Position numbers and translations under genes: made by a program. Of a DNA stretch of 64,000 bases, positions 6,030 to 61,826 are shown in pieces. How positions within the stretch are numbered: the stretch's first letter is position 1; each line of letters opens with the position of its first letter. Source of the stretch: Deltaproteobacteria bacterium (GTDB lineage: Bacteria; Desulfobacterota; Deferrimicrobia; Deferrimicrobiales; Deferrimicrobiaceae); contig JAKAHC010000002.1 in NCBI GenBank assembly GCA_021815305.1, positions 224,112 through 288,111 on the forward strand, written 5' to 3'. The notes beneath the pieces were generated by a model. That model did no database searches and was not told the DNA's origin. It saw only the letters and a program-made list of their open reading frames with translations.

Positions 6030-8435
6030 TCAAGAGGTTCGAATTTTCCCGCCGAACCGATTCTCTAATAAATTTACTATCTTGGTATGTATACTATGTA
6101 CATCGGCGTCCGTCAAGGTTCTGTCGGACGGCTGAAGTTTCACACGGATGCCGACGCTTTTCCTGCCTTCGCCGATCTTTTCTCCGGTAAACACATCGAA
6201 AACGTTCGCCTCCTCGATCTCGGGAGAAACCTCCCGGACCATGGAGAGTACGTCCCCCACGGGAATCGTCGCGGGGAACACACACGCCACATCGCGGAAT
6301 ACCGGAGGAAATTTCGGCAAGGAGCGGTACATGCCCGGCGCGGGTTGCGCAACCAGCGCCGCCTGCATGCGGATCTCCGCGTAGAAAACCTGCCCCGGGA
6401 TCTCGTATTCTCCAAGGAGTTCCCGGCGGACCGCGCCGAACCAACCGATCGACGCTCCGTCCTTGAGGAGATCCGCGGACTTCCCTTCCTCGAAGAACGG
6501 CCGCCGCGACGGAACCACATGAAGAGGCGCAGCGCCCAGGTGCAACAGGAGCGGTTCCACGACCCCCTTGATGTCGTAGAAATCCACCGGAACGTCGCCA
6601 CCGGACCAGTCTCGCGGAATACGCCTGCCGCAGAGGACCAGGCCCAGGCGGGGCTCTTCGTAATGTCCCGCCACGAACGGTTTCCCGTAGCCTTTTCCGG
6701 CTTCATACAGCCGCATGTCCTCGGTGAACCGGTGAACGTTGTCCGACACGTTCTGCAGGAGTCCCGTCAGCAGGTGCGGTCGCATCAAGGTGGTGTCGTC
6801 AGAGATCGGGTTCTTCACCCGCACGGCATCCGAAGGTTCGAACCCGAGGAGGGACCCCAGCCGCTCCCACTTGCGCCCCGACACGAAGGAGAAGTTCACG
6901 GCCTGCGAGAATCCGTGGCCCCGCAGGAAGTCGCACGCGCGTTCGACGGCGTCGACGAACCGGTCGTCTGCGGAGAACTCCGGTGCGCGGGACACCGGGT
7001 AGGTGGCGGGGATCCCTTCGTAACCGGACAACCGCGCGATCTCTTCGATGAGGTCGATCTCCCGCTCGATGTCGAAACGGCAGGAGGGGACTGCGACCTC
7101 CCACGCCTCCGGCGATCTCTCGGCCACGGGAAAGGAAAGCCGTCCGAAGATCTCCCTGCACTCCGCGGGAGAGTACTCTTTCCCGACGATGCGGCCGGCT
7201 CGCTCCGGACGAAACGGAACCACGCGGGAAAAGGACCTCTCCCCTCCCACGTCGATGATGCCCTTTGCCGGAACCACGGGCGCGAAGCCGGACAGGAGCG
7301 AAACCGCCCTGTCCGCCGCGTACACCGTTCCGGCCGGGTCCACCCCCCGTTCGAAACGGTACGACGACTCGCTGGACAACCCCAGCCGGCGCGACGTCCT
7401 CCGGATCGATGCCGGGGCGAAATGGGCGCTTTCGAAAAGGACGCGCGTGGTGCGGTCGGTGACTTCGCTGTCGGCGCCGCCCATCACTCCAGCGACGGCA
7501 ACCGGTCCTTCCGCATCCCAGATGAGGAGCATCCCGGGGTCGATCCCGCGTTCCGTCCCGTCGAGCGTCGCGAACGCCATTCCCTCTTTCGGGGCGCGCA
7601 CGTCGATGCGGGAGCCCCGCAGCCGGTCGAGGTCGAAGGCGTGCATCGGCTGCCCGACTTCCAGCAGCAGGTAGTTCGTGACGTCTACGACGTTGTTGAT
7701 CGGCCGGATGCCGCACAGGGAGAGCCGTCTCTGCATCTTCCTCGGGGAGGAGGCGATCGTCACCCCCGTGACGACCCTCGAGGAGTACCGGGGACACAGG
7801 GCCGGATCGGTTACGGTGACGGACACAAGGTTCCCGACGGCGTCCCCTTCCTCACGGATCGGGACATCCGGAAGGAAGACCTTCTCCCCCGTGATGGAAG
7901 CGATCTCCCGCGCCACTCCCAGCACGCTAAGGCAGTCGCCCCGGTTGGGGGTGATTTCGACATCGAGAAGCCAGTCCGTCAGCTCCAGCGCGTCCGCCAG
8001 CGGGATTCCCGGGGGGGTATCGTCGGGAAGGATCAGGATTCCCGCGGATTCTTCGGCGAGCCCGAGCTCCTGCTCGGAACAGAGCATCCCTTCCGAGGAT
8101 TGCCCGCGGATCTTCGCCTTCGAGATCACCGCCCCGTTGGGGAGCTTCGCACCGACCTTCGCCAGCGCCACCGCATCCCCCGCCTTCATGTTCCTGGCGC
8201 CGCAGACGACGTCGAACGTGGACGCACCGTCGGTCACGGCGCACACGGAGAGACGGTCCGCAGACGGGTGCGCGGACATCGAAAGAATCCTCGCCGTGAC
8301 GACGGAACCGAACCCCTCTCCCAGGAACCGGCAGGAGGAGACCTCCACGCCCGCCATCGTCAGCGCCTCCTGGATCCGGACGGGCGACAAGCGGGTGTCG
8401 ACGAACTCTTTGAGCCACGAGTACAGGATTTTCAA
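6030..8435 (-). CDS. pheT: Phenylalanine--tRNA ligase beta subunit.
   Basis: The N-terminus is KILYSWLKEFVD and B3/4, B5 and FDX-ACB domain sequences follow. A TTG start at 8435 is preceded by GGGAGAG. The track's upstream M extension is R/S-rich junk. Confidence 0.9.
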   Translation of the reverse strand: MKILYSWLKEFVDTRLSPVRIQEALTMAGVEVSSCRFLGEGFGSVVTARILSMSAHPSADRLSVCAVTDGASTFDVVCGARNMKAGDAVALAKVGAKLPNGAVISKAKIRGQSSEGMLCSEQELGLAEESAGILILPDDTPPGIPLADALELTDWLLDVEITPNRGDCLSVLGVAREIASITGEKVFLPDVPIREEGDAVGNLVSVTVTDPALCPRYSSRVVTGVTIASSPRKMQRRLSLCGIRPINNVVDVTNYLLLEVGQPMHAFDLDRLRGSRIDVRAPKEGMAFATLDGTERGIDPGMLLIWDAEGPVAVAGVMGGADSEVTDRTTRVLFESAHFAPASIRRTSRRLGLSSESSYRFERGVDPAGTVYAADRAVSLLSGFAPVVPAKGIIDVGGERSFSRVVPFRPERAGRIVGKEYSPAECREIFGRLSFPVAERSPEAWEVAVPSCRFDIEREIDLIEEIARLSGYEGIPATYPVSRAPEFSADDRFVDAVERACDFLRGHGFSQAVNFSFVSGRKWERLGSLLGFEPSDAVRVKNPISDDTTLMRPHLLTGLLQNVSDNVHRFTEDMRLYEAGKGYGKPFVAGHYEEPRLGLVLCGRRIPRDWSGGDVPVDFYDIKGVVEPLLLHLGAAPLHVVPSRRPFFEEGKSADLLKDGASIGWFGAVRRELLGEYEIPGQVFYAEIRMQAALVAQPAPGMYRSLPKFPPVFRDVACVFPATIPVGDVLSMVREVSPEIEEANVFDVFTGEKIGEGRKSVGIRVKLQPSDRTLTDADVHSIHTKIVNLLENRFGGKIRTS

Positions 8436-8463
8436 GAGAACGCTCTCCCTGCCCCCCGCCGCA

Positions 8464-9498
8464 TCAGAACTGCGAGAGGAAGCGGATGTCGTTTTCGAAG
8501 AAAAGGCGGATGTCGGAGATCCCGTGACGCAGCATCGCGATGCGTTCCACGCCCATGCCGAAGGCGAAGCCCGAGTACTCCTCGGGGTCGTATCCCACGA
8601 AGCCGTACACGGCCGGGTCGACCATCCCCGCCCCAAGGATCTCCAGCCATCCGGAGTCCTTGCACACGCGGCACCCCGAACCGCCGCAGATGACGCACCG
8701 GATGTCCACCTCGGCGGACGGCTCCGTGAAAGGAAAGTAGCTCGGGCGAAACCGGAGAGGTTTCCCGGGACCGAACGTCATCCGGCAGAACTCCGTGAGA
8801 AGGCCTTTCAGATCCGCCATCGTGATGTCCCGGTCGACCGCGAGCCCTTCCACCTGGTGGAACATGGGGGAATGGGTGATGTCGGAATCGGACCGGTAGA
8901 CCGCGCCGGGAGCGATGATCCGGACGGGGGGCCGCATCTTCTCCATCGTGCGGATCTGTATGGGCGAGGTGTGGGTGCGCAGGACGAGATCGCCCGCATC
9001 GGATTCCACGTAGAACGTGTCCTGCATATCACGCGCGGGATGCTCCGGCGGGAAGTTGAGGGCCTCGAAGTTGTAGTAATCCTTCTCCACGTCCGGTCCG
9101 CCGCGCACGGAAAACCCCAGCCGCCGGAAGACGTCGATGATGTCCGCCATCGTCCGGGAGATGGGGTGGCGGTGCCCGGGGAGATGCCCTCTTCCGGGTA
9201 GCGTGACGTCGAGATGGGCCCGCCCCTCCCGCAAGGCCCGCTCCCGCTCCCGGATGCCGGAAAGGCGGGAGTCGAAGAACTTCTCCAGCTCGATCCGCGC
9301 GCGGTTCGCCTCGGCGCCCACCGTCTTTCGCTCGTCGACGGCGAGGGAGGCGATCCCCTTCAGGATCTCCGAGATCGCACCCTTCTTGCCGAAGAAACGC
9401 CCCTTCGCTTCGAGAAGTTCGCTCTCGTTGCGCGCCGAGGAAAGCGCAGCGAGCCCCTCTTCCCGCAGGCGCGCGATCCTCTCGGAGGTGCCGGGCAA
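8464..9498 (-). CDS. pheS: Phenylalanine--tRNA ligase alpha subunit.
   Basis: Class-II synthetase motifs are present (FRPSYFPFTEPSAEVDI, GFAFGMGVERIAMLRHGISDIR). A TTG start at 9498 has AAGGGG upstream. Confidence 0.9.
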   Translation of the reverse strand: MPGTSERIARLREEGLAALSSARNESELLEAKGRFFGKKGAISEILKGIASLAVDERKTVGAEANRARIELEKFFDSRLSGIRERERALREGRAHLDVTLPGRGHLPGHRHPISRTMADIIDVFRRLGFSVRGGPDVEKDYYNFEALNFPPEHPARDMQDTFYVESDAGDLVLRTHTSPIQIRTMEKMRPPVRIIAPGAVYRSDSDITHSPMFHQVEGLAVDRDITMADLKGLLTEFCRMTFGPGKPLRFRPSYFPFTEPSAEVDIRCVICGGSGCRVCKDSGWLEILGAGMVDPAVYGFVGYDPEEYSGFAFGMGVERIAMLRHGISDIRLFFENDIRFLSQF

Positions 9499-40553: not shown

Positions 40554-41320
40554 TTTCCCTTCCTCCCCCCGCCGCCGAACAGCTTGTCCAGCGTATCCCG
40601 CAGTTGCTCCGGCGTATCCGTTTTCCTTGCCCCGAGGTTGGAGAAGACGGTGACGTTCCCCGTTTCCTCGGAAACGACGACGGCCACGGCGTCCGTGTCC
40701 ATCGTGACGCCGAACGCCGCCCGGTGGCGCGTCCCCATCTTGATCGTCTCCAGCGACTCCGCGGGGATCGGCAGAATCACCCCGGCGGCGGCGATCCGGT
40801 TCCCGCGCAGGACCACCGCACCGTCGTGGACCGGCGATCCCGGGGCGAAGATCGCCGCCGCGAGGTCATGGGAATAGAGGGCGTCCATCCTCCGGCCGTG
40901 CTCCACGAACTCCTCGAGCCCCATCTCCCGCTCCAGGAGCAGGATGGCGCCGATGCGTTCCCGCGCGAAGTGAAATGCGCTGAAGGAGAGCTGCTCGATC
41001 AGGTCCGGATCGGGGGCGTTCCCCTTCCCCCCGAGAATCCGCCACTGGCCGATCCTGGCCAGCCCCCTGCGGATCTCGTTCTGGAAGACGACCACCAGCA
41101 CGACGAGGATGTTTCCCAGGACGTTCCCCACCAGCCACTGGAAGGTCACCATGCCGGCCTTTTTGGAGATGACGTACAGCACCATGAGCGCCAGCAGGCC
41201 GAAGAGCATCTGGACGGCCCGCGTGCCGCGGATGAACAGGAGGATCCAATAGATGATGAACGCCACCAGAAGGACGTCGAGGACATCCACCGCTCGGATG
41301 GGAGGAATCGCGTCGATCAC
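40550..41320 (-). CDS. cdaA: Diadenylate cyclase (c-di-AMP synthase) CdaA.
   Basis: Three N-terminal TM helices precede a DAC domain (DGAVVL...RHRAA.G..E.TDA..VVVSEETG). The GTG start overlaps the folP stop. Confidence 0.85.
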   Translation of the reverse strand: MIDAIPPIRAVDVLDVLLVAFIIYWILLFIRGTRAVQMLFGLLALMVLYVISKKAGMVTFQWLVGNVLGNILVVLVVVFQNEIRRGLARIGQWRILGGKGNAPDPDLIEQLSFSAFHFARERIGAILLLEREMGLEEFVEHGRRMDALYSHDLAAAIFAPGSPVHDGAVVLRGNRIAAAGVILPIPAESLETIKMGTRHRAAFGVTMDTDAVAVVVSEETGNVTVFSNLGARKTDTPEQLRDTLDKLFGGGGRKGK

Positions 41321-42480
41321 GCCATGGGCCCCCGGATCGCTTCCGCCACCCTTACCACCTCCCGCATCTCCCTCACGTCGTGCACGCGCACGACGTGCGC
41401 GCCGTGCAGCACCGCCGCGGTCACCGAAGCCGCAGTGCCGTAGGCCCTGTCCGCCGCCGGCTTCCCGGTAAGCGTGCCCAGGAACCCCTTTCTCGACGGG
41501 CCGAATACGATCGGCCGGCCGAGGACCCGGAGCTCCTCGAGGTGCCGGTGCAGCTCCAGGTTGTCCTCGAACCGCTTCCCGAATCCGATGCCGGGGTCGA
41601 CGAGGATCCGCTCCCGCTCGATCCCCGCCTCCACCGCCGCTTCGATCCGGTCCGAGAGCTCCCCGAGGAGCTCATCGAACAGCGAATCGTAGTGCGGCGC
41701 CTCCTGCATCGTCTCGGGGGTTCCCCGGCGATGCATCAGCACCACGGCGCACCCCGCATCCCGCACGATGTCCGCCATCCCGGGGTCGTCCGCGAGGGCG
41801 CTCGTGTCGTTGACGATCCTGGCGCCTGCCGCGATCGCCTCCCGAGCTACGGAAGCCTTCGTCGTGTCCACGGAGAGGACCGCGTCCGTCCCTTCGGCAA
41901 GTCCCCGCAGCACCGGGATCACCCGGGACAGCTCCTCTTCCGGGGACACCGGCCTGGAACCGGGCCGGGAGGATTCCCCTCCCACGTCGAGGATCTCCGC
42001 ACCCTCGGAGGCCATCGCGATCCCCCGCGTCACCGCCTCCGCCGCGGACCGGTAGGCGCCGCCGTCGGAGAAGGAATCGGGCGTGACGTTCACGATCCCC
42101 ATGATCCTTGGGGTGCCGGAAAGGTCGATGCCGCCGTCGGGGATGGGAACGTGGAAAGCCCTGGTGAAGCTCTTCGCAACCGACACGGCCGAAGCCCGCA
42201 AGACCCCTGCCCACGGAGCCTTCCTCGCCCATTCCTCCGCCTGTGCGAACGACGAAGGGGAGAACAGCAGGTGCGATCCGGTCCGAAGCACCGGGATCCC
42301 CTCCGCCGCCAGCAACCGCTCGATCCGGGGGTCCCCGGCGTCTTCCAGCTCCAGGGGAGCGGCCGCCACCAGCGCCCGCAGGTTCCGGAGAAACGCTTCC
42401 GCAGGCCCGGTTTGCGCTCCGAAAGCGCGCAGCCGGTCGCGGACCGTCGCGGGGTCGCCCGCCGGAAAGACCCGGACCAC
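41317..42480 (-). CDS. folP: Dihydropteroate synthase with an approximately 125-aa N-terminal extension of unknown function. The start is uncertain.
   Basis: The pterin-binding core MGIVNVTPDSFSDGG...DVGGESSRPG...NDTS...GIGFGK begins at the ATG at 42102. The same frame stays open, with high GC3, back to a GTG at 42480 or a TTG at 42495 just after the ftsH stop. Confidence 0.7.
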   Translation of the reverse strand: MVRVFPAGDPATVRDRLRAFGAQTGPAEAFLRNLRALVAAAPLELEDAGDPRIERLLAAEGIPVLRTGSHLLFSPSSFAQAEEWARKAPWAGVLRASAVSVAKSFTRAFHVPIPDGGIDLSGTPRIMGIVNVTPDSFSDGGAYRSAAEAVTRGIAMASEGAEILDVGGESSRPGSRPVSPEEELSRVIPVLRGLAEGTDAVLSVDTTKASVAREAIAAGARIVNDTSALADDPGMADIVRDAGCAVVLMHRRGTPETMQEAPHYDSLFDELLGELSDRIEAAVEAGIERERILVDPGIGFGKRFEDNLELHRHLEELRVLGRPIVFGPSRKGFLGTLTGKPAADRAYGTAASVTAAVLHGAHVVRVHDVREMREVVRVAEAIRGPMA

Positions 42481-44476: not shown

Positions 44477-45853
44477 CTATTTCTCCGAACGGTTCTCCGG
44501 AACGAGCTTCCGGCGCCCGGGGAGAAGCATCCGCAGCAGGACGGCCTTGCGCGTTGCCGGGGTGACGGGGGCGTGTGCGGACCGGACCACGCCCGGGATC
44601 CAGAGGATCCTGCCGTCCGCATCGCAAACCACCGGCCGTCCCCGGCGCTCATCCCGCGGAACCTTTCTGTCGATGAGGATCTCCTTGACCCGCTTTTCGG
44701 TTTCCATCCCGAACGGACGAACCCGGTCCCCCGCCCGGAGGGGCCGGAGGATCACCGGGAACGCGACGGCCGATGCGTCGAACAGTTCCGCGTTTCCCTT
44801 CGCCGCGAGGCGCTTGGCCCGGGAGATCGTCGCATTCATCACCGCCTTGACGTGCAGGACCTGCGCCGTCGGCGCGCTCGCGGACACAGTGTGAACGAAC
44901 CGGGCCTCTCCGTACCGGTTGGCCAGCTCCCACCCCTTCCCGAGTTTCCGCCGTGCGGACGGCCCGCCGCCGCCGATCGTCTTGTCCATCCCGCGCAGCA
45001 ACCGCTCGTTCGGCGCCAGTCCGAGGCGATCGAAACAGATCCGCTGGAGGATCTTGACGCGCAGGATCGCCGGGATCCCGCGGAAGCCCTTCCGCGGGAT
45101 CCGCAGGATCGGTGCGGAGCTCGCCTCCTTCTTGACGTTCCTGCGGATCCATGCCCGGGCTTCCGCGTCCAGGTAATCGTCCAGTTCGCGGAACCGTTCC
45201 CCCAACGCAAAGATCCGCCGCTTCACGGATTTACCGTACCGTTTCACCAGCAGAGGCACCAGGATGTGGCGGATCCAGTTCCGCTCCGCGCGGGTGTCCC
45301 GGTTGGAGCGATCGATGCGATACGGTATCTTGTGTTTCTTTAAGTATTCTACTATATCCTCTTGCCATACATCGAAAATCGGACGAACGATACCGCCTTC
45401 AGAGACTCTCGGAATCCCTTTGAGCCCGGCGATTCCCGCCCCCTCCAGGAACCGCATCAGGATCGTCTCCACCTGATCGTCGGCGTGGTGCGCCACGGCG
45501 AGTTCCTTCGCACCGACGCGACGGCAGAGATCCGTCAGCCAGGCGTACCGAATCTTGCGGGCATCGTTCTCGAAACCGGACGGGAAACTCCGCGATGCCC
45601 CCATGGTTCGCGTCAAGAGACCGGCTTTCCCCAAATTCAGGATTTCCGTTTCCAATCGAAATTTTTTCGCGGTTTCTTCAACCAGCACCTGGTCCTTGTC
45701 CGATTCCTTGCCACGAAATCCGTAGTTTACGTGTCCCAGGACGATTCGACGTGTTTCCTCCCGCAGGAGACGGTCCAGCAGGAACATGGAATCCGGTCCG
45801 CCCGATACCGCGGCGATCAACGCCGGACCCTGCGGTTTGGTGCTCTTGCCCAT
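44477..45853 (-). CDS. tilS: tRNA(Ile)-lysidine synthetase.
   Basis: The PP-loop AAVSGGPDS and a HHADDQVETILMR motif are present. The start is the ATG at 45853. Confidence 0.8.
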   Translation of the reverse strand: MGKSTKPQGPALIAAVSGGPDSMFLLDRLLREETRRIVLGHVNYGFRGKESDKDQVLVEETAKKFRLETEILNLGKAGLLTRTMGASRSFPSGFENDARKIRYAWLTDLCRRVGAKELAVAHHADDQVETILMRFLEGAGIAGLKGIPRVSEGGIVRPIFDVWQEDIVEYLKKHKIPYRIDRSNRDTRAERNWIRHILVPLLVKRYGKSVKRRIFALGERFRELDDYLDAEARAWIRRNVKKEASSAPILRIPRKGFRGIPAILRVKILQRICFDRLGLAPNERLLRGMDKTIGGGGPSARRKLGKGWELANRYGEARFVHTVSASAPTAQVLHVKAVMNATISRAKRLAAKGNAELFDASAVAFPVILRPLRAGDRVRPFGMETEKRVKEILIDRKVPRDERRGRPVVCDADGRILWIPGVVRSAHAPVTPATRKAVLLRMLLPGRRKLVPENRSEK

Positions 45854-45911
45854 GATCCGTAATTGTGGAGGGTTTTTCCCGGCGCCGCAAGACCGCGGGC
45901 CGCTTGCGGAT

Positions 45912-46982
45912 CTACTTCTTGAGGATCTTGCCCTGTGTCGGAGGAGTCGGTCCCTCATTCAAAACACGCCAGTACAGTGCGGCGGACATCGGGGATGTGC
46001 CCCCCGAGTCCAGGACCGATCGCACCGCAAAATACACCTTTTCGTTTTTGGACATGCCATAGGTCACGGGATTGAAGTCGATAAAATTCCCGGAGAGGGA
46101 GGATACCATGACGGAAACCGACCCGGCAGGAAACGCCGGGTCGGTGCTCCAGTAGATGTTGTACCGAACGGTACGGCCCGCTTCGAGGGGAGTTCCATCG
46201 GAGTAGGTCGTTATGCCATCCCAGGATAATTCCCATATCTCCGTGGCGGGAGCGGATGGCGCGGCGGGCGAGGCGGACGAGATCGGTCCGGTGATGCCGA
46301 TATTCGCAGGCACCGCCGGAATCCGTGCCGGCACGTCGACAACGTTCACGCTCTTGGTCGCCGTCTTTGTGGTCCCGCCGCTGGTGTAGCCGGCCGTCAC
46401 CGTCACGCTCTGGGTCGCCGTCACCTGCGCCGCCGTCAGCACCCCGCTCGAACTGATCGTCGCGTAACCGGTCGACACGCTCCAGGTCGGGGACACCGAG
46501 GTGGTCGTGTTGTCGCTCCAGGTTGCCGTCGCCGTGTAGGTGGAGGTCGACCCCTCGTTCACGGAAGAGGCGCCGGCGATCGACAGGCCGCTCAAAGTCG
46601 GGGCTGGAGGAGTCACTACCGGTACGACCCACGCGTACGCGGGGGAAAGCGCCGATACCTCGCCCGTGCTCAGCGCGGCGCTCGCCGTGAAGTAGGCGGT
46701 CGCTCCGCGTGTCATTCCCTGCACGTCCGGGTCGAAGGTCGTTGAAGTGGCGGTCAGCCCCGTGGCGATGGGATGGAGGGACGTCAGGCTTGCGCTTGCT
46801 GACCAGTACACCGAGTACGTGACGGTGATTCCCCCGCCGATCGTCGTGCCATCCGTGTAGGTCGTGACCGGGTCCCAGGAAACGGTCCGGGTTTCCGCCG
46901 ATGCGTTTTCACGGAGCGCAAGGAGGAGACCGAGGGTCAAAAAAACCAAGGACGCCTTCCGAAAGCCCCTCGCCCTCGACAT
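45912..46982 (-). CDS. Secreted Ser/Thr-rich protein with fibronectin-III-like modules at both ends.
   Basis: A signal peptide is followed by a W-D-P..Y.DGT...Y.VYW module near the N-terminus and another near the C-terminus. The centre is S/T-rich. The ATG abuts the upstream lipoprotein stop (TAAATG). Confidence 0.55.
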   Translation of the reverse strand: MSRARGFRKASLVFLTLGLLLALRENASAETRTVSWDPVTTYTDGTTIGGGITVTYSVYWSASASLTSLHPIATGLTATSTTFDPDVQGMTRGATAYFTASAALSTGEVSALSPAYAWVVPVVTPPAPTLSGLSIAGASSVNEGSTSTYTATATWSDNTTTSVSPTWSVSTGYATISSSGVLTAAQVTATQSVTVTAGYTSGGTTKTATKSVNVVDVPARIPAVPANIGITGPISSASPAAPSAPATEIWELSWDGITTYSDGTPLEAGRTVRYNIYWSTDPAFPAGSVSVMVSSLSGNFIDFNPVTYGMSKNEKVYFAVRSVLDSGGTSPMSAALYWRVLNEGPTPPTQGKILKK

Positions 46983-47432
46983 TTAGCTGCGAGTCCAGAC
47001 GACCGGCGTCATGAAAGCCGATTTTTGTTTGTCGACCCCGACCGCTTTCAAGGAAACGTAGAGCTGGCTTCCCGAAGGAAGGTTCGGCAGGAGATTCAGG
47101 TTAAACTCCGTGACCAGCGATTTGACGATCGTTTGCCCGTCCTGCGAAGGAACGTCCGCCACGGAGGCCACCTCGGCAACCGGAAGATCGGTGTCGGCGA
47201 AATTCGGGTCCTGGCGGACGTAGATCTCGTAAAAATCCAGATCCTGGGCCGGATCCATGACGGTGTTGTCGTTATACGCGGCGGGAGGCGTCCATGTGAG
47301 GGCCGTAACGGGGCCTGCCGGAGGGGGCGGCGCAATCCCTTGGGAAGTGACTCCTCCACCCCCGCATCCGGTCAACAACCCGCCAAGTGCGATCCCCCCG
47401 ATCAGGCACCCCAGGTGATTCCGTCGAAACAT
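46983..47432 (-). CDS. FN3-like lipoprotein, a paralog of the 57971-58363 gene.
   Basis: The start was chosen at MFRRNHLGCLIGGIALGGLLTGC, where the ATG at 47432 has GGAGGGAA upstream. This gives a lipoprotein signal with lipobox LTGC. A LTWTPP..Y.DNT...DLDFYEIYV module follows. Confidence 0.6.
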   Translation of the reverse strand: MFRRNHLGCLIGGIALGGLLTGCGGGGVTSQGIAPPPPAGPVTALTWTPPAAYNDNTVMDPAQDLDFYEIYVRQDPNFADTDLPVAEVASVADVPSQDGQTIVKSLVTEFNLNLLPNLPSGSQLYVSLKAVGVDKQKSAFMTPVVWTRS

Positions 47433-47731
47433 CGCAATTCCCTCCACAGCCCGATACCTGTTCGCAATGGACTGTCATCCCCCGTTTCTCAAATTACGTG
47501 CCATCAGGGGTTCCGGGAATTGCGGAAAAACATCTTCTCAACATACTGATAAACATATGGATTCACCGTAAACACCGAAAGACAACAAACAATAAAAAAA
47601 CACATTCGCGTTTGTTCTTTCAGCATCGAAAGAAAAATTTCACAAATGATATTTTCAGGAGGGCAATCGAAGAGTCACAGAAACCCAATTCCCCGGATTC
47701 GCAGTGAAACCCATGATGTGGCCTCCTGCGA

Positions 47732-54235: not shown

Positions 54236-55606
54236 TCACCCCTCCCGGAACGTCTTCCAATCGATGCGCAACACCTGGATCTTGTAGTTCAAAACACGAG
54301 GGGTGACCCCGAGCAGCTCCGCGGCGTCCTTCTGGACCCCCCGGGTTTTCCGGAGCGCCCGCTCGATGGCGCCCCTCTCCATCTCTTCGAGGTTCAAGGT
54401 CTCCAGGTACGGTTGCGATTCCCTTCCCGACTCGACGCTTTCGAGGATCAGGTCGGAGGGGGTGATCAGGGAGTTCTCGCAAAGGAGCACGGCACGTTCG
54501 ATCGCGTTCTGAAGCTCCCGTACGTTCCCGGGCCATTCGTACCTGCGCATCTTCAGGATCGTCTCCGGGGCGAACCCGTCCACCTTCTTCTTGAAGTCGG
54601 AGGCGTACCGGTTGAGGAAATGCCGCGCCAGCGGCAGGATGTCTTCGAGGCGCTCCCGGATCGGAGGAATGTGGAGCTGCACGACGTTCAGCCGGAAGTA
54701 CAGGTCCTGGCGGAACCGCCCTTCCTGCACTTCCTTGCGCAGGTCCTTGTTCGTCGCCGCGACCACGCGGACGTCCACCTTGACCGTCTTCCCGCTGCTG
54801 CCCAGCCGCTCGAACTCGTGCTCCTGCATCACCCGCAGCACCTTGGACTGCGTCGTGGGACTCATGTCCCCGATCTCGTCCAGGAAGATGGTCCCCTTGT
54901 CCGCCTGCTCGAACCGGCCTATGCGCATCCGGTCCGCGCCGGTGAAGGCGCCCCGCTCGTGGCCGAACAGTTCGCTCTCCAGGAGGTTCTCGTGGAGGGC
55001 AGCGCAGTTGACTTTCACCAGCGGCTGTTCCCGTCGCTGGCTGTGGAAGTGCACCAGCCCCGCCAGGACCTCTTTCCCGGTCCCCGTTTCCCCCGTGACC
55101 AGGACGGTGGCGGACGTCGGGGCGACCTTCCGGATCTTGGACAGCACCTCCTTCATCACCGGGTTTTCCGCGACGGGAAGCCCCTCCCCCATCTCGAGCC
55201 GGTACTGGACCTTCTTGAAAAAGTCGAGTTCCCCCCGCATCTTCTGGACGCGCAGCGCGGTCCCCACGCGATGTTTGAGGTGCTCGACGTCGAAGGGCTT
55301 CTGGATGTAGTCGAAGGCGCCCAGGCGCAGCGCCTGGAGCGCCGACTCCAGCGTCGCGTACGCGGTCATCAGGATGACCTCGGTCTCGGAGTTGACCTCC
55401 TTGGCCTTCCGCAAGACCTCCACCCCGCTCACGTCCCCCAGTTTGATGTCGGTCACCACGACATGGGCCGCTTCGGATTCCAGGGCCTGGAGCGCATCCG
55501 CCCCATTGGCCGCCACTGTCACGACGTAGCCCGCATCTTCCAGGGCGCCGGCAATCCCTACGCGCAACGCCTCGTTGTCTTCGGCCAGCAGAATCCTGTC
55601 AGACAT
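54236..55606 (-). CDS. Sigma-54-dependent response regulator (NtrC family; PrsR-like).
   Basis: A REC domain (D at LLAEDNE...DIKL) precedes an AAA+ sigma-54 activation domain (GETGTGKE, GAFTGA, ESELFGHE) and a Fis-type HTH. Confidence 0.85.
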   Translation of the reverse strand: MSDRILLAEDNEALRVGIAGALEDAGYVVTVAANGADALQALESEAAHVVVTDIKLGDVSGVEVLRKAKEVNSETEVILMTAYATLESALQALRLGAFDYIQKPFDVEHLKHRVGTALRVQKMRGELDFFKKVQYRLEMGEGLPVAENPVMKEVLSKIRKVAPTSATVLVTGETGTGKEVLAGLVHFHSQRREQPLVKVNCAALHENLLESELFGHERGAFTGADRMRIGRFEQADKGTIFLDEIGDMSPTTQSKVLRVMQEHEFERLGSSGKTVKVDVRVVAATNKDLRKEVQEGRFRQDLYFRLNVVQLHIPPIRERLEDILPLARHFLNRYASDFKKKVDGFAPETILKMRRYEWPGNVRELQNAIERAVLLCENSLITPSDLILESVESGRESQPYLETLNLEEMERGAIERALRKTRGVQKDAAELLGVTPRVLNYKIQVLRIDWKTFREG

Positions 55607-56949: not shown

Positions 56950-57942
56950 ATGCCCCTGCACCGCTGGCTCGCCCTGGATACGGACCGGACCCTCGAAACC
57001 TTGGCCCGGAAGATGAAGGAGACCGTTCTTCGAACGCTGTCCCGGAAAGGGGCCGTGGTCGCCATCTCCGGCGGGATCGACAGTTCCGTATGTGCCGCTC
57101 TCACAGCAGCCGCCCTTGGCCGGGACCGCGTCTTTGGTCTCCTGCTCCCGGAGAAGGACTCCTCTCCCAGGAGCCAGGAACTCGGCGAATCGGTGTGCCG
57201 GATCCTGGGAATTCCGTACGAGATAAAGGACATCGCGGACACGCTCGAGGCGATCGGCTGCTACCGCCGGCGCGACGCGGCCATCCGGAATGTCCTCCCG
57301 CAGTATGCGGCGGGTTGGAAGAGCAAGATCGTCATCTCGCGGCACGCAAGTGAGACGGCCCGCTGGAACTTCTTCCGGCTCATCGTCGAGTCCCCCGACG
57401 GGCAGCGGTCCGAGACGCGACTCCCCTTGAACGAGTACCTGGAGATCGTGGCCGCCACGAACTTCAAACAAAGGATTCGGAAGACGCTGGAGTACTTTCA
57501 CGCCGATCGATTGAATTACGCCGCCGTCGGGACACCGAACCGGCTGGAATACGACCAGGGATTCTTCGTCAGGAACGGCGACGGTGCCGCCGACGTCAAA
57601 CCAATCGCGCACCTCTACAAGAGCCAGGTCTACGAACTGGCGGCGACGCTGGGACTCCCGGACGCAGTCGTCGGTGCAACGCCCACGACCGACACCTACA
57701 GCCTGGAACAGGGACAGGACGAGTTCTACTTCTCGCTCCCCTACAACAAGATGGACCTCGTGCTGTTCGGGCTTAACAACGCGAAGTCGCCCGAAGAAAT
57801 CGCCGCGGAGACGGGCCTGACGGCCGAGCAGGTCCGGATGGCCTTCGAAGACATCCGCGGGAAGCGCAGGACGACCGCCCGGCTGCACTGGAAGCCGGTG
57901 CTTCTGGAGCCCGTCGCGGAGATCCGCGATCGCGAAGAGTAG
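56950..57942 (+). CDS. nadE: NH3-dependent NAD+ synthetase (PP-loop ATP pyrophosphatase).
   Basis: The PP-loop VVAISGGIDSS is present and the C-terminal half aligns with NadE (GT.N..E...GFF.K.GDG..D..P...L.K..V). The start was chosen at the ATG at 56950. Confidence 0.75.
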   Translation: MPLHRWLALDTDRTLETLARKMKETVLRTLSRKGAVVAISGGIDSSVCAALTAAALGRDRVFGLLLPEKDSSPRSQELGESVCRILGIPYEIKDIADTLEAIGCYRRRDAAIRNVLPQYAAGWKSKIVISRHASETARWNFFRLIVESPDGQRSETRLPLNEYLEIVAATNFKQRIRKTLEYFHADRLNYAAVGTPNRLEYDQGFFVRNGDGAADVKPIAHLYKSQVYELAATLGLPDAVVGATPTTDTYSLEQGQDEFYFSLPYNKMDLVLFGLNNAKSPEEIAAETGLTAEQVRMAFEDIRGKRRTTARLHWKPVLLEPVAEIRDREE

Positions 57943-57970
57943 CGGAGCTCGTTGGCCCGTCGCGAAGCGG

Positions 57971-58363
57971 TCAGAGCGAGAACGAAGCCGTCGGAGAGAA
58001 GTCGGACTTCGCGCCATCGTTGGTAACGGCGCGGATTGCCACGTAGTACGTTACGCCCGGGGACAGCTGGGGGGCCAGCAGCACGAGGTTGAAGGAGCGG
58101 TCTTCCGGCGCCACTGACGCCTCGGCGGAATCGGTCGGTCCGAAGGAAGGGTTCTCCTTCACATAAATCTCGAAACTCTGCAGGTCCGTGGCGGGATTGA
58201 GGGGGGTGCCGTTCGTATAGGACATGGGGGCTTCCCAGATCAACGTCTTGGCTGGAGTGGAGGCCGCGGGGACGGAATCACTGGAGCTGCTCCCTCCGCC
58301 GCACGCGGAAAGGAGTCCTCCAAGGATCGCGCACACAGCAAAGATCTTCTTCAGCCGACCCAC
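57971..58363 (-). CDS. FN3-like lipoprotein, a paralog of the 46983-47432 gene.
   Basis: A GTG at 58363, 9 nt after AGGAGGG, gives MGRLKKIFAVCAILGGLLSACGGG. This is a lipoprotein signal with lipobox LSAC. A LIWEAP.SYTNGT...DLQSFEIYV module follows. Confidence 0.55.
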   Translation of the reverse strand: MGRLKKIFAVCAILGGLLSACGGGSSSSDSVPAASTPAKTLIWEAPMSYTNGTPLNPATDLQSFEIYVKENPSFGPTDSAEASVAPEDRSFNLVLLAPQLSPGVTYYVAIRAVTNDGAKSDFSPTASFSL

Positions 58364-58390
58364 GTACACGTGCCCTCCTGACTGGAAATT

Positions 58391-58407
58391 GGCAAGGGCC
58401 GTGCCAA
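58391..58407 (-). promoter_or_regulatory. Sigma-54 promoter candidate for the 57971-58363 lipoprotein.
   Basis: The minus strand reads TTGGCAC-GGCCC-TTGCC, a consensus match with GG-N10-GC. It lies about 30 nt upstream of the GTG start. Confidence 0.55.
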
Positions 58408-58477
58408 TATCCTGAGCCATGAAGGTTCAATGGGTTATGCGTTTCGGAACGCGTCGGCAATTTCGGATTTGTAACCT

Positions 58478-59399
58478 CTATTTCAAAAGCGTATCCGTGA
58501 GGCTGGCCATGGCGACCTTCTCCGACAGGAGTTGGAGCAGGTACTGGCCGTATCCGTTCTTCCTCATCGGCGCCGCAAGAACCTCCACCTGCGCAGCGTC
58601 GATGAAGCCCATCCGGTAGACGACTTCCTCGACGCAGGCGACCTTCAGTCCCTGGCGCTTCTCGATCGTTTCTACGAAGGCGCTTGCTTCCAAAAGAGAA
58701 TCGTGCGTTCCTGTGTCCAGCCACGCGAACCCGCGCCCCAGGAGTTCCATGCGCAGCGCCCCTTGCGCCAGGTAGGCGTTGACGACGTCGGCGATCTCCA
58801 GTTCGCCCCGGGCCGAAGGTGAGGGGCTCGCTGCGATTTCCGCCGCTTGGCTGTCGCAGAAATACAGCCCGGGAACCGCGTAGCTGGATTTCGGACGCGC
58901 CGGCTTCTCCTCGATGTTCCGCACCGTACCGCGAAAATCGAATTCCACGACCCCGTACCGTTCCGAATCGCGCACCCAGTAACCGAAGATCGTGGCGCCG
59001 GTCTCCACAGCGGTCGCGCGCTGGAGGATCGACGCGAACCCGTGTCCGTAAAAGAGGGTGTCCCCGAGGATCAGGCAGACGGGGTTCTCTCCGGTAAACT
59101 CTCTTCCGATCAGGAATGCCTGCGCGATCCCTTCCGGCCGTGGCTGCGGCGCGTAGGCGATCCGGATACCCCACTGGGATCCGTCCCCCAGAAGATCCCG
59201 GAACATAGGAAGGTCGACCGATGTCGAGATGAGCAGAAGTTCGCGGATACCGGCGAGCATGAGCACGGACAGGGGGTAGTAGATCAGCGGCTTGTCGTAG
59301 ACGGGAAGGAGTTACTTGCTCACCGCCTTGGTGATGGGATACGGCGGGTCCCCGCTCCCCCGGCCAGGATGATCCTCTCTCGCCTCGGACTTCCCTCAT
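58478..59399 (-). pseudogene. rfbA: Glucose-1-phosphate thymidylyltransferase (RfbA/RmlA) disrupted by a 1-nt deletion and a CAA-to-TAA nonsense codon in the N-terminal nucleotide-binding motif.
   Basis: From the ATG at 59399 the frame reads MLTHEGSPRRERIILAGGAGTR, then shifts by -1 where Leu is expected, then reads [24 protein letters not shown]. The remaining about 260 aa (track ORF 58478-59266) are intact RmlA sequence. Confidence 0.6.
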
Positions 59400-60280
59400 G
59401 AGTGAGCATTCTTCGCTCCTTTCCCTTCCCTCCTCCGCAGCCCCCACACCAACAGACCCATCAGACCGAGAGCCATCACGAAGAACAGGATGCCGCCGTT
59501 CTGGTGGAGCCGGCTGCCCAGGATCCTCCGGTCCACGTACGCGCCCAGCAGGGCCAACGTGACGATCCTCACGCCGTTCTTGAAGACGGTGATGGGGACT
59601 ACGGACAGGACAAGAAGAAGCTTGTTCCCGGCTCTTCGCAAGAACAGATGCCCCGCAATGAGACTGGTCAGCACCAGCGACAAGCTCGACCGGATCCCGC
59701 TGCACTCCCGGGCGACTTCGATCGACAGCCCCGGGAGAGAAAAGGTGAAGCCGTCGCGGTAGACCGGGACCCCTGCAAGCTGGAAGAACCCGTAGGAGAT
59801 TTCCGCCGAGCCGCGTTGCAGCGCGGACACGATGGGATCCAGTAGGGCCTTCGGCAACGGGATCATGAAGACGAGGAAAAGAAGCGGGAAGGCCGCAGCC
59901 TTCCAAGCCCCCGGCCCGTAGGTCAGGCCGATCCACCCCACGTTGCACGCGACCATCGATGCCGTCATGACCGCCAAATAGTCGCCACGTCCGAGGAAGT
60001 CTCCCTTCGCTATGCCGTAGGCGTACAGCGCCGCAGCCGCCAGGATCGGCGCGCCGGCGGAGAGATGCCATCCCTCCCTCTCTCGGAAGATTTCCCCGCG
60101 GTCCTGGTAAGCAAGGTACGCGCTCACCAGCGGCACCAGCGGGATGTAAGAGAACGTGTCGTCGTTCCACGCGAAGCGGAACAGGGCCCAGAGGGACGAC
60201 CGATAGAGGACGAGCCAGGCGGCAAGAAACAGTAGGAACGCGCCGCTGCGTCCGTTCGTCCTTCCCGTGCCGGACATCAT
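59396..60280 (-). CDS. Exosortase (Xrt/EpsH family) transpeptidase.
   Basis: This 294-aa polytopic membrane protein has the conserved exosortase motifs EVARECSGIRS (catalytic Cys), PITVFKNGVRI and an Arg. Confidence 0.75.
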   Translation of the reverse strand: MMSGTGRTNGRSGAFLLFLAAWLVLYRSSLWALFRFAWNDDTFSYIPLVPLVSAYLAYQDRGEIFREREGWHLSAGAPILAAAALYAYGIAKGDFLGRGDYLAVMTASMVACNVGWIGLTYGPGAWKAAAFPLLFLVFMIPLPKALLDPIVSALQRGSAEISYGFFQLAGVPVYRDGFTFSLPGLSIEVARECSGIRSSLSLVLTSLIAGHLFLRRAGNKLLLVLSVVPITVFKNGVRIVTLALLGAYVDRRILGSRLHQNGGILFFVMALGLMGLLVWGLRRREGKGAKNAHS

Positions 60281-60305
60281 CCCTCTCCTCGCGACCGCGA
60301 CCGCC

Positions 60306-61826
60306 TCAAGCTGGCGGATCTCCCTTCAACGCGGACCGATCGACCTTCCCGTTGGCGGATTTCGGCAGCTCGTCCAGGAAGACGATCTCCTTCGGAACCA
60401 GAAACGCCTCGAAGTTCTCCGAACAGAACCGCAGGACGTCCGCCGCCTGCACCGCCTTACCCACTGTCGGCGCGATGAACACCTTGATCGCCTGCCCAAG
60501 GATCGCGTCCGGCACCCCGACCACCGCGGCCTCCGCCACGCCCGGCATGGCGGCCAATGTGTGCTCCATCTCCTTGGGGCTGATCCTGTGGCCTCCGGTC
60601 TTGATCATCTCCGACCGCCGCCCGACGACGTAGAGGAACCCGTCCTCGTCCGCTCGTCCTAGATCGCCCGTGTACAGGCACCCGTTCTTGAGAACCGCAG
60701 CCGTCTCCTGGGGACTGTTCCAGTATCCTGCCATGATGTTGTCCCCCTCCGCCACAATCTCGCCGATCTCGCCGGGCCGGACGGGGATGCCCTCTTCGTC
60801 GCGCAGCGTAATGCGAACGCCGGGGATCGCCTTGCCGATGGACCCGGGCCTGCGAAGGAGCTCCGCCGGTTCGAGATAGGTCAGGCGGGGTGCCGCCTCC
60901 GTCTGGCCGTACATGATGAAGACATCCGTCTCGGGCAGCGCCTCCTTGAGCTCGCGCGCCAGCGTCGGCGACATGGCGCCCCCGGCCTGCGTGACGTAGC
61001 GGAGGGCCGGAAACACTCGCGTCCTCAGGCTCGACCGGTTCAGCAGGATCGCGAACGTCGACGGCACACCTGCGAATCCCGTAACCTCTTCCTCCTGCAT
61101 TCGGTCCAATACGACGTTCGGAAACGCGAAGCGATTTTCGAGCACCAGGCATCCGCCAGCGAGAACGTGCGTTGTCAACAGCGAATTCCCGTAGGAGTAG
61201 CGGAACGGCAGGACCACCATCACGCGATCTTCGTACGTCAGCTTCAGGTACTCGACGATCGATGCGGCGTTCGAAAGGAGGTTCCGGCGCGTCAACATGA
61301 CCCCTTTCGGCCGCCCGGACGTCCCGGAGGTGTAGAGGATCAGGGCGAGTTGGTTCGTTTCCGCGTCCACCGGCCGTCGGCCCGCTCCCCGGAGCGCGCC
61401 GCCGCCCCTTCTCCGTCGGTCGAATTCCATCGAGTCGACGTCGACGATGGTCCGCACGGAGACGGCGTCTCCCAGCGTCCACTCCCGCGCTCGCAGTTGC
61501 TCCCCGCGACCGATCACCACGGACGGGGTGCAGTCGGCGACGATCCTTCCCAATCCCCTTTCGTTCGCGTCGTGAGCTACCGGCACGACGACGCCACCCG
61601 CGCGCAGAACCGAAAAGTAGGTCACGAGGTACTCGGGAGAGTTCTCCAGAAGAACAAGCACCCGCTCCCCCGGCGCAAGTCCCGATGCGACCAGCCGTTC
61701 CGACAGATCGGTTGCCCGTTGCTGCAGCCTGGAATACGGCACGCGGCGGTTCCCGCAAACGACCGCGATCCGATCCGGATACCGCTCCGCCGAGACCCGG
61801 AGAAGATCGTGAACTAGCGCGGTCAT
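60306..61826 (-). CDS. AMP-dependent acyl-CoA ligase (exosortase-system-associated type).
   Basis: The AMP-binding motif YTSGTSGRPKGV is present along with TGD, GYWN and a PKS.NGK C-terminus. It is adjacent to the exosortase, the AsnB-like gene and the ACP gene. Confidence 0.8.
   Translation of the reverse strand: MTALVHDLLRVSAERYPDRIAVVCGNRRVPYSRLQQRATDLSERLVASGLAPGERVLVLLENSPEYLVTYFSVLRAGGVVVPVAHDANERGLGRIVADCTPSVVIGRGEQLRAREWTLGDAVSVRTIVDVDSMEFDRRRRGGGALRGAGRRPVDAETNQLALILYTSGTSGRPKGVMLTRRNLLSNAASIVEYLKLTYEDRVMVVLPFRYSYGNSLLTTHVLAGGCLVLENRFAFPNVVLDRMQEEEVTGFAGVPSTFAILLNRSSLRTRVFPALRYVTQAGGAMSPTLARELKEALPETDVFIMYGQTEAAPRLTYLEPAELLRRPGSIGKAIPGVRITLRDEEGIPVRPGEIGEIVAEGDNIMAGYWNSPQETAAVLKNGCLYTGDLGRADEDGFLYVVGRRSEMIKTGGHRISPKEMEHTLAAMPGVAEAAVVGVPDAILGQAIKVFIAPTVGKAVQAADVLRFCSENFEAFLVPKEIVFLDELPKSANGKVDRSALKGDPPA

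Follow-up and report, generated by a model that had tools for sequence, protein, structure and literature searches.

An exosortase-linked rfbA gene that is very probably a recent pseudogene in an uncultured Deferrimicrobium/Desulfobacterota relative

The exosortase-linked glucose-1-phosphate thymidylyltransferase gene (rfbA/rmlA) of an uncultured Deferrimicrobium/Desulfobacterota relative is, in all probability, a recently inactivated pseudogene. We analysed it within a 64-kb stretch of DNA (hereafter, the window). When set against intact orthologues (four DNAs and 119 proteins), its disabling lesions are a frameshift, a nonsense codon, and a change of the GDN motif to GDT. As predicted from its reading frames, the locus cannot encode full-length RmlA.

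The pseudogene occupies positions 58478–59409 on the minus strand, extending in reading-frame translations from an ancestral ATG (59409–59407) to a TAG stop (58480–58478). An AGGAG Shine-Dalgarno sequence can be read 6 nt 5′ of this ATG (59416–59420), and the encoded N-terminal extension, MLTHEGS (M-x-x-x-EGS), is similar to MK(P/T)SEGS in intact homologues. The first 14 nt of rfbA are shared with the 3′ end of the exosortase gene, whose TGA stop (59398–59396) lies inside rfbA. A first-pass annotation of this DNA had recognized that the start region of rfbA overlaps the exosortase stop; however, it had placed the start at 59399, where an ATG sits in the third frame, rather than at 59409 behind the AGGAG, and it had put rfbA upstream of the exosortase, while on the coding minus strand rfbA is downstream.

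Translation from ATG 59409 gives MLTHEGSPRRERIILAGGAGTR and then leaves the RmlA frame, ending after 29 residues at a TGA (59320–59322, minus strand). The missing base lies within the Leu codon of the G-x-G-T-R-L loop on the rfbA minus strand (Arg-Leu codons reading ACC CGC C-G TAT, approximately 59342–59345), as located by the frame switch and by a gap relative to four intact orthologue DNAs; the loss of one base in this motif had been proposed before and holds. Likewise, the Gln codon of the conserved S-K-Q motif is indeed replaced by TAA (59312–59314, minus strand). The comparison with orthologues that the first-pass annotation had suggested showed their DNAs to be in frame, with CAA in the two exosortase-linked genes (L020, ERR14790934; L021, SRR23969305) and CAG in tilS-linked ones (L010, GCA_027403835.1; L014) at the position of the stop. 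Given the CAA of the exosortase-linked orthologues, one C-to-T transition is enough to account for the TAA. Between 59300 and 59350, the broken allele carries CGCCGTAT and AAGTAACTC, the intact-type counterparts being CGCCTGTAT and AAGCAACTC. The frame one base onward is open for 278 codons plus the stop (58478–59311, minus strand), through the TAG at 58480–58478 and with a typical GC3 of 0.79, and gene callers pick up 242- or 260-aa pieces of this frame. Deletion and TAA both fall inside ~30 nt of one gene. Neither lies within a homopolymer or simple repeat, which rules out phase variation. Under uniform decay, two lesions ~30 nt apart in a 930-nt gene have a chance of roughly 6%; the clustering at the 5′ end may point to one complex mutational event or to constraint on the rest of rfbA.

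Given their overlap and the lack of a terminator-like site between them, the exosortase gene and the rfbA pseudogene are probably still transcribed together. The Shine-Dalgarno sequence and ATG, kept where they overlap the exosortase end, would still support initiation, but the loss of 1 nt from the GxGTRL loop would divert ribosomes to a stop after 29 residues, yielding a short peptide. In the original frame, a TAA takes the place of the S-K-Q Gln codon, and Thr replaces the Mg-binding Asn of GDN. With the short peptide as the only product, the locus would no longer supply dTDP-glucose for the PEP-CTERM/exosortase exopolysaccharide.

For homology searches we repaired the gene by restoring the T and changing TAA to CAA, which gave a conceptual translation of 310 residues. 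This translation scored 463.8 bits against TIGR01207 (NCBIfam rmlA; cut-off 360.65), with residues 13–295 aligned to positions 3–285 of the 286-position profile, and matched solved RmlA structures without gaps at ~65% identity (5IFY, E 4e-127; 4HO0, E 5e-124). RmlA binds dTTP through the motif GxG(T/S)RLxPxTx4K, its LGDN (GDN) motif is a Mg2+-stabilising/dTTP motif, and xEKP and SxRGExEI are its Glc-1-P motifs, alongside a DTG motif (PMC8606822). In the window, the dTTP-binding motif is interrupted by the frameshift and its Lys is directly followed by the TAA, leaving the motif without an uninterrupted ORF. LGDN reads LGDT, a position occupied by Asn in 100% of the 119 homologues and in two PDB RmlA sequences. 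The Glc-1-P and DTG motifs are present in the open frame as EEKP, SARGELEI, and LDTGTHD.

The change of GDN to GDT was absent from the first-pass annotation. It results from an ACC (Thr) codon at 59059–59057 (minus strand) in place of the invariant Asn codon and corresponds to N118T in the numbering of the repaired protein. Across the 119 homologues, the repaired protein shows the highest number of substitutions at columns conserved to ≥97% (15, against a median of 1). In an isolation-matched control the count was 13 versus a median of 2, and an intact, equally isolated lineage (P0112/P0113) has nine, which keeps the excess from being decisive. Among the changes at 100% invariant columns to which both PDB outgroups also conform are G12R, R69M, L95I, N118T, and I119L; P149S is a further change at an invariant residue downstream. 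Tajima's relative-rate test gave opposite answers depending on the outgroup, namely no acceleration with 5IFY and acceleration with 4HO0 (p ~0.01–0.03). The identity of rfbA to its L010/L014 orthologues (76–80%) is at the level of the flanking genes (FolP 77%, CdaA 73–77%, FtsH 88–89%), and these identities give no sign of a general acceleration of rfbA. Taken at sequence level, constraint may have been relaxed at key rfbA residues, without general acceleration. As its divergence matches that of the flanking genes, the inactivation would be recent compared with the time since known relatives split off, and this recency would also account for the 278 codons that are still clean.

Could the 3′ part still be in use, as a non-catalytic protein of ~260 aa that starts at GTG 59266 or ATG 59260 and has a structural or regulatory role? 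The 278 open codons with their typical GC3, an overall divergence not above that of the flanking genes, and the restriction of lesions to the first 100 nt all suit such a product, yet we consider it improbable. Neither start is preceded by a Shine-Dalgarno sequence, and a protein initiated internally would lack the nucleotide-binding loop, as had been foreseen: its first 48–50 residues are gone, and with them GxGTRLxPxTx4K (PMC8606822) and the initial strand of the nucleotide-binding fold. Moreover, invariant residues further downstream are changed (R69M, L95I, N118T, and P149S), the closest relative is without the gene altogether, and a recent inactivation would leave a clean remainder anyway. 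Slightly less likely still are two further readings: that the C-terminal ~260 residues of RmlA are kept as a non-catalytic partner or regulator in the exosortase/PEP-CTERM system, or that the paired 5′ lesions are a selected off-switch for dTDP-sugar incorporation into the polymer.

An intact real rfbA, with sequencing or assembly having introduced both lesions into the consensus, is equally hard to sustain. Such errors are conceivable in that the source is a metagenome-assembled genome and the evidence comes from assemblies rather than reads; however, the lesions are identical in four assemblies from different samples, made with at least two assemblers. These are independent data sets and assemblers, possibly of related samples of one study, and all represent one clonal population. 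Specifically, two ENA MEGAHIT assemblies (ERZ27237541 and ERZ27237554) and the Logan assembly of SRR13241953 match the window at 100% identity over 6.1–6.8 kb, both lesions included, and an NCBI MAG (GCA_021818205.1; contig JAKAEU010000001.1, 413 kb) has the same 242-aa ORF call in the same place. The protein collection lists the truncated ORF twice, with 242 aa (P0001) and with 260 aa (P0121), from identical DNA but with different start calls; the two are carried by five and six contigs, in agreement with the 11 contigs on which the exact protein of the neighbouring AsnB gene is found. No intact rfbA allele was present among 5.8 billion protein clusters, where the next hit after the 100% match has 80% identity. 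The position of both lesions outside homopolymers also speaks against consensus errors, as does the lack of internal stops in the 45 other called genes of the same contig (52 kb). The stop codons of these neighbours are TGA in 29 cases, TAG in ten, and TAA in six. With all 45 intact and TAA a regular terminator, the genetic code appears standard and the assembly sound. An alternative code or a suppressor tRNA was ruled out by the same use of TAA and by the lack of any suppressor tRNA in the window. Since the lesions recur across assemblies and no intact allele was found, they are probably a property of this clonal population and unlikely to be an artefact, as judged from assemblies; four concordant assemblies, the missing intact allele, and 45 clean neighbours thus side with the first-pass annotation, which had argued for a genuine pseudogene over a sequencing error.

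Programmed recoding, in which a −1 ribosomal frameshift and readthrough or reassignment of the TAA would produce full-length active RmlA, draws on the retained Shine-Dalgarno sequence and ATG and on the open remaining frame, but its chances are minimal given that no X XXY YYZ slippery heptamer occurs in the 26 codons over which a shift could bring back the reading frame, that a slip at the deletion site would insert Pro in place of the invariant Leu, that all orthologues are in frame and have CAA or CAG where the stop lies, that TAA terminates six of the 45 neighbouring genes, that neither a suppressor tRNA nor an Rfam element was found, and that GDN is mutated as well.

By its predicted gene content, the region around the pseudogene appears to be a PEP-CTERM/exosortase exopolysaccharide locus. 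The exosortase gene (59396–60280, minus strand), which adjoins the 5′ end of rfbA, encodes a full translation of 294 aa, although the gene caller starts at the second ATG. It matches TIGR02602 (127.3 bits, cut-off 105.55) and PF09721; as it scored 150.8 against the XrtA model (cut-off 208), only the general TIGR02602 cut-off is exceeded. The sole specific cut-off passed at the locus is that of PrsT (325.3 bits > 312.2), with PrsR (394 < 502.6), the ligase (423 < 592), and the amidotransferase (424 < 817) remaining below theirs. In minus-strand order, the window contains an AsnB-type amidotransferase, an acyl-CoA ligase, the exosortase, the rfbA pseudogene, and a 149-aa lipoprotein-like gene (57971–58420, minus strand) that lies 3′ of rfbA without a terminator-like site in between. 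These are followed by an NAD synthase gene on the opposite strand, a histidine kinase, and a sigma-54 response regulator; then—all on the opposite strand—by a DUF642 gene, a PEP-CTERM protein gene, and a GGDEF-HD gene; and finally by a PrsT-like TPR protein, two lipoprotein-like genes, and tilS-ftsH-folP-cdaA-ybbR-glmM-pdxJ. The 10 kb upstream of the window encode Wzz, a priming transferase, glycosyltransferases, and a pectate-lyase-like protein. Bearing on the strain-specific loss of dTDP-sugar activation that the first-pass annotation had raised, searches of the 64-kb window and 10 kb beyond revealed neither a second rfbA (tblastn) nor rmlB, rmlC, or rmlD, and C-methyltransferases are absent from the window, from which it seems that the pathway consuming the rfbA product is missing from the locus. 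Rfam and promoter/terminator scans of 57800–60400 returned nothing relevant.

We also made several observations on the neighbouring genes. Small lipoprotein-like proteins form a family with members encoded in the window (57971–58420, 46983–47432, and 45912–46982, all minus strand) and on contig L022 (~8190–8640), where the homologue lies between exosortase and histidine kinase. The family has no match in Pfam or NCBIfam and shares a motif of approximately L-x-W-x-x-P-x-x-Y-x-x-x-T-x-x-x-P-x-x-D-L-x-x-[FY]-E-I-Y-V. Identity between its two 149-aa copies is 38% (E 1e-15), and the module occurs twice in a 356-aa protein. One copy lies 3′ of the rfbA pseudogene and the others in the slot where relatives have the rfbA upstream of tilS. 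Upstream of a 149-aa lipoprotein-like gene, an AT-rich spacer of 284 nt (47448–47731) stands out in this 64% GC genome; at 47503–47489 (minus strand) the sequence TGGCAC-N5-TTGA is a near match to a sigma-54 promoter, and the locus encodes a sigma-54-dependent response regulator (54236–55606). Lastly, the dihydropteroate synthase (Pterin_bind; ~41317–42480, minus strand; also L004 17427–18590) is called with 387 aa, versus 260–262 aa in relatives. Its homology is confined to the C-terminal 258 residues, and the N-terminal ~125 may represent a mis-called start or an added domain.

Among relatives, rfbA was found in two positions, namely after the exosortase (L020 and L021) or directly upstream of tilS (L010 and L014–L016). 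In the latter arrangement, the gene (L010 6001–6894; L014 8001–8903) precedes tilS-ftsH-folP-cdaA-ybbR-glmM-pdxJ, and the corresponding window region is 44477–47447. The closest exosortase (61% identity) is encoded on contig L022, which has an exosortase, a lipoprotein homologue, a histidine kinase, and a regulator, and on which tblastn (E up to 10) detected no trace of rfbA-like sequence. This contig (ERZ25039545 contig_49886) contains many very short called genes and a frameshifted lipoprotein homologue, resembling an error-prone long-read assembly. As it is likely error-prone, the integrity of its genes should not be over-interpreted, yet the absence of rfbA is robust. A search of genome and metagenome contigs with the exosortase yielded only relatives at 43–53% identity, none with rfbA nearby. 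On a contig of another relative (L017, GCA_040961535.1, 12 kb), two 301-aa rfbA genes (990–1895 and 6442–7347) each lie beside a divergent Bac_transf priming transferase, indicating that rfbA can be multi-copy and polysaccharide-linked in this group. With the slot after the exosortase intact in L020 and L021, occupied by a pseudogene in the window, and empty in L022, the window would represent an intermediate stage of gene loss, and rfbA appears dispensable in the window lineage.

The inactivation of rfbA is ordinary gene decay and needs no new mechanism. It nonetheless matters for annotation: the 242- or 260-aa "NTP_transferase" that gene callers report here is not to be counted as a functional RmlA, and a pathway model could mistakenly assign dTDP-glucose or rhamnose synthesis to the MAG on the basis of the called fragment. 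The locus further illustrates, in a small and clean case, how an accessory gene for sugar activation is lost step by step from a polysaccharide locus linked to an exosortase. Some relatives keep the gene whole, the window has it broken, and the nearest relative lacks it; this hints that these uncultured lineages secrete polymers of differing composition.

Compared with known RmlA/RfbA proteins (TIGR01207; PDB 1FXO, 1H5R, 5IFY, and 4HO0), the repaired translation aligns end to end at ~65% identity, and the window pseudogene retains the EKP, SxRGExEI, and DTG motifs. It differs from them in that its ORF is broken inside GxGTRLxPxTx4K, has a stop at the conserved Gln, and encodes GDT for GDN. The exosortase-linked rfbA genes of L020 and L021 are intact (300 aa), lie 17 nt 3′ of the exosortase, and are 73–75% identical to the window rfbA at the protein level, with CAA where the window has TAA. 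Relatives and window share the gene order exosortase and then rfbA, followed in L021 by a histidine kinase. Upstream of the exosortase they diverge: L020 and L021 carry NDP-sugar-type C-methyltransferases (PF08421/PF08484) and an SDR epimerase/dehydratase, whereas the window has an acyl-CoA ligase and an AsnB-type amidotransferase. Two or three C-methyltransferases precede the exosortase in these relatives (L020 1186–3710; L021 43–4905), with the SDR epimerase/dehydratase seen in L021 and none in the window; this upstream SDR gene of L021 was rejected as an RmlB (43 bits versus a TIGR01181 cut-off of 365). The closest homologues of the window rfbA, at 76–80% identity, are the tilS-linked genes of L010 and L014–L016 (the latter being GCA_007280195.1 and others). 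Here, relatives and window have the tilS-ftsH-folP-cdaA-ybbR-glmM neighbourhood in common, but the slot upstream of tilS, filled by rfbA in the relatives, holds two lipoprotein-like genes and no rfbA in the window (45912–47447).
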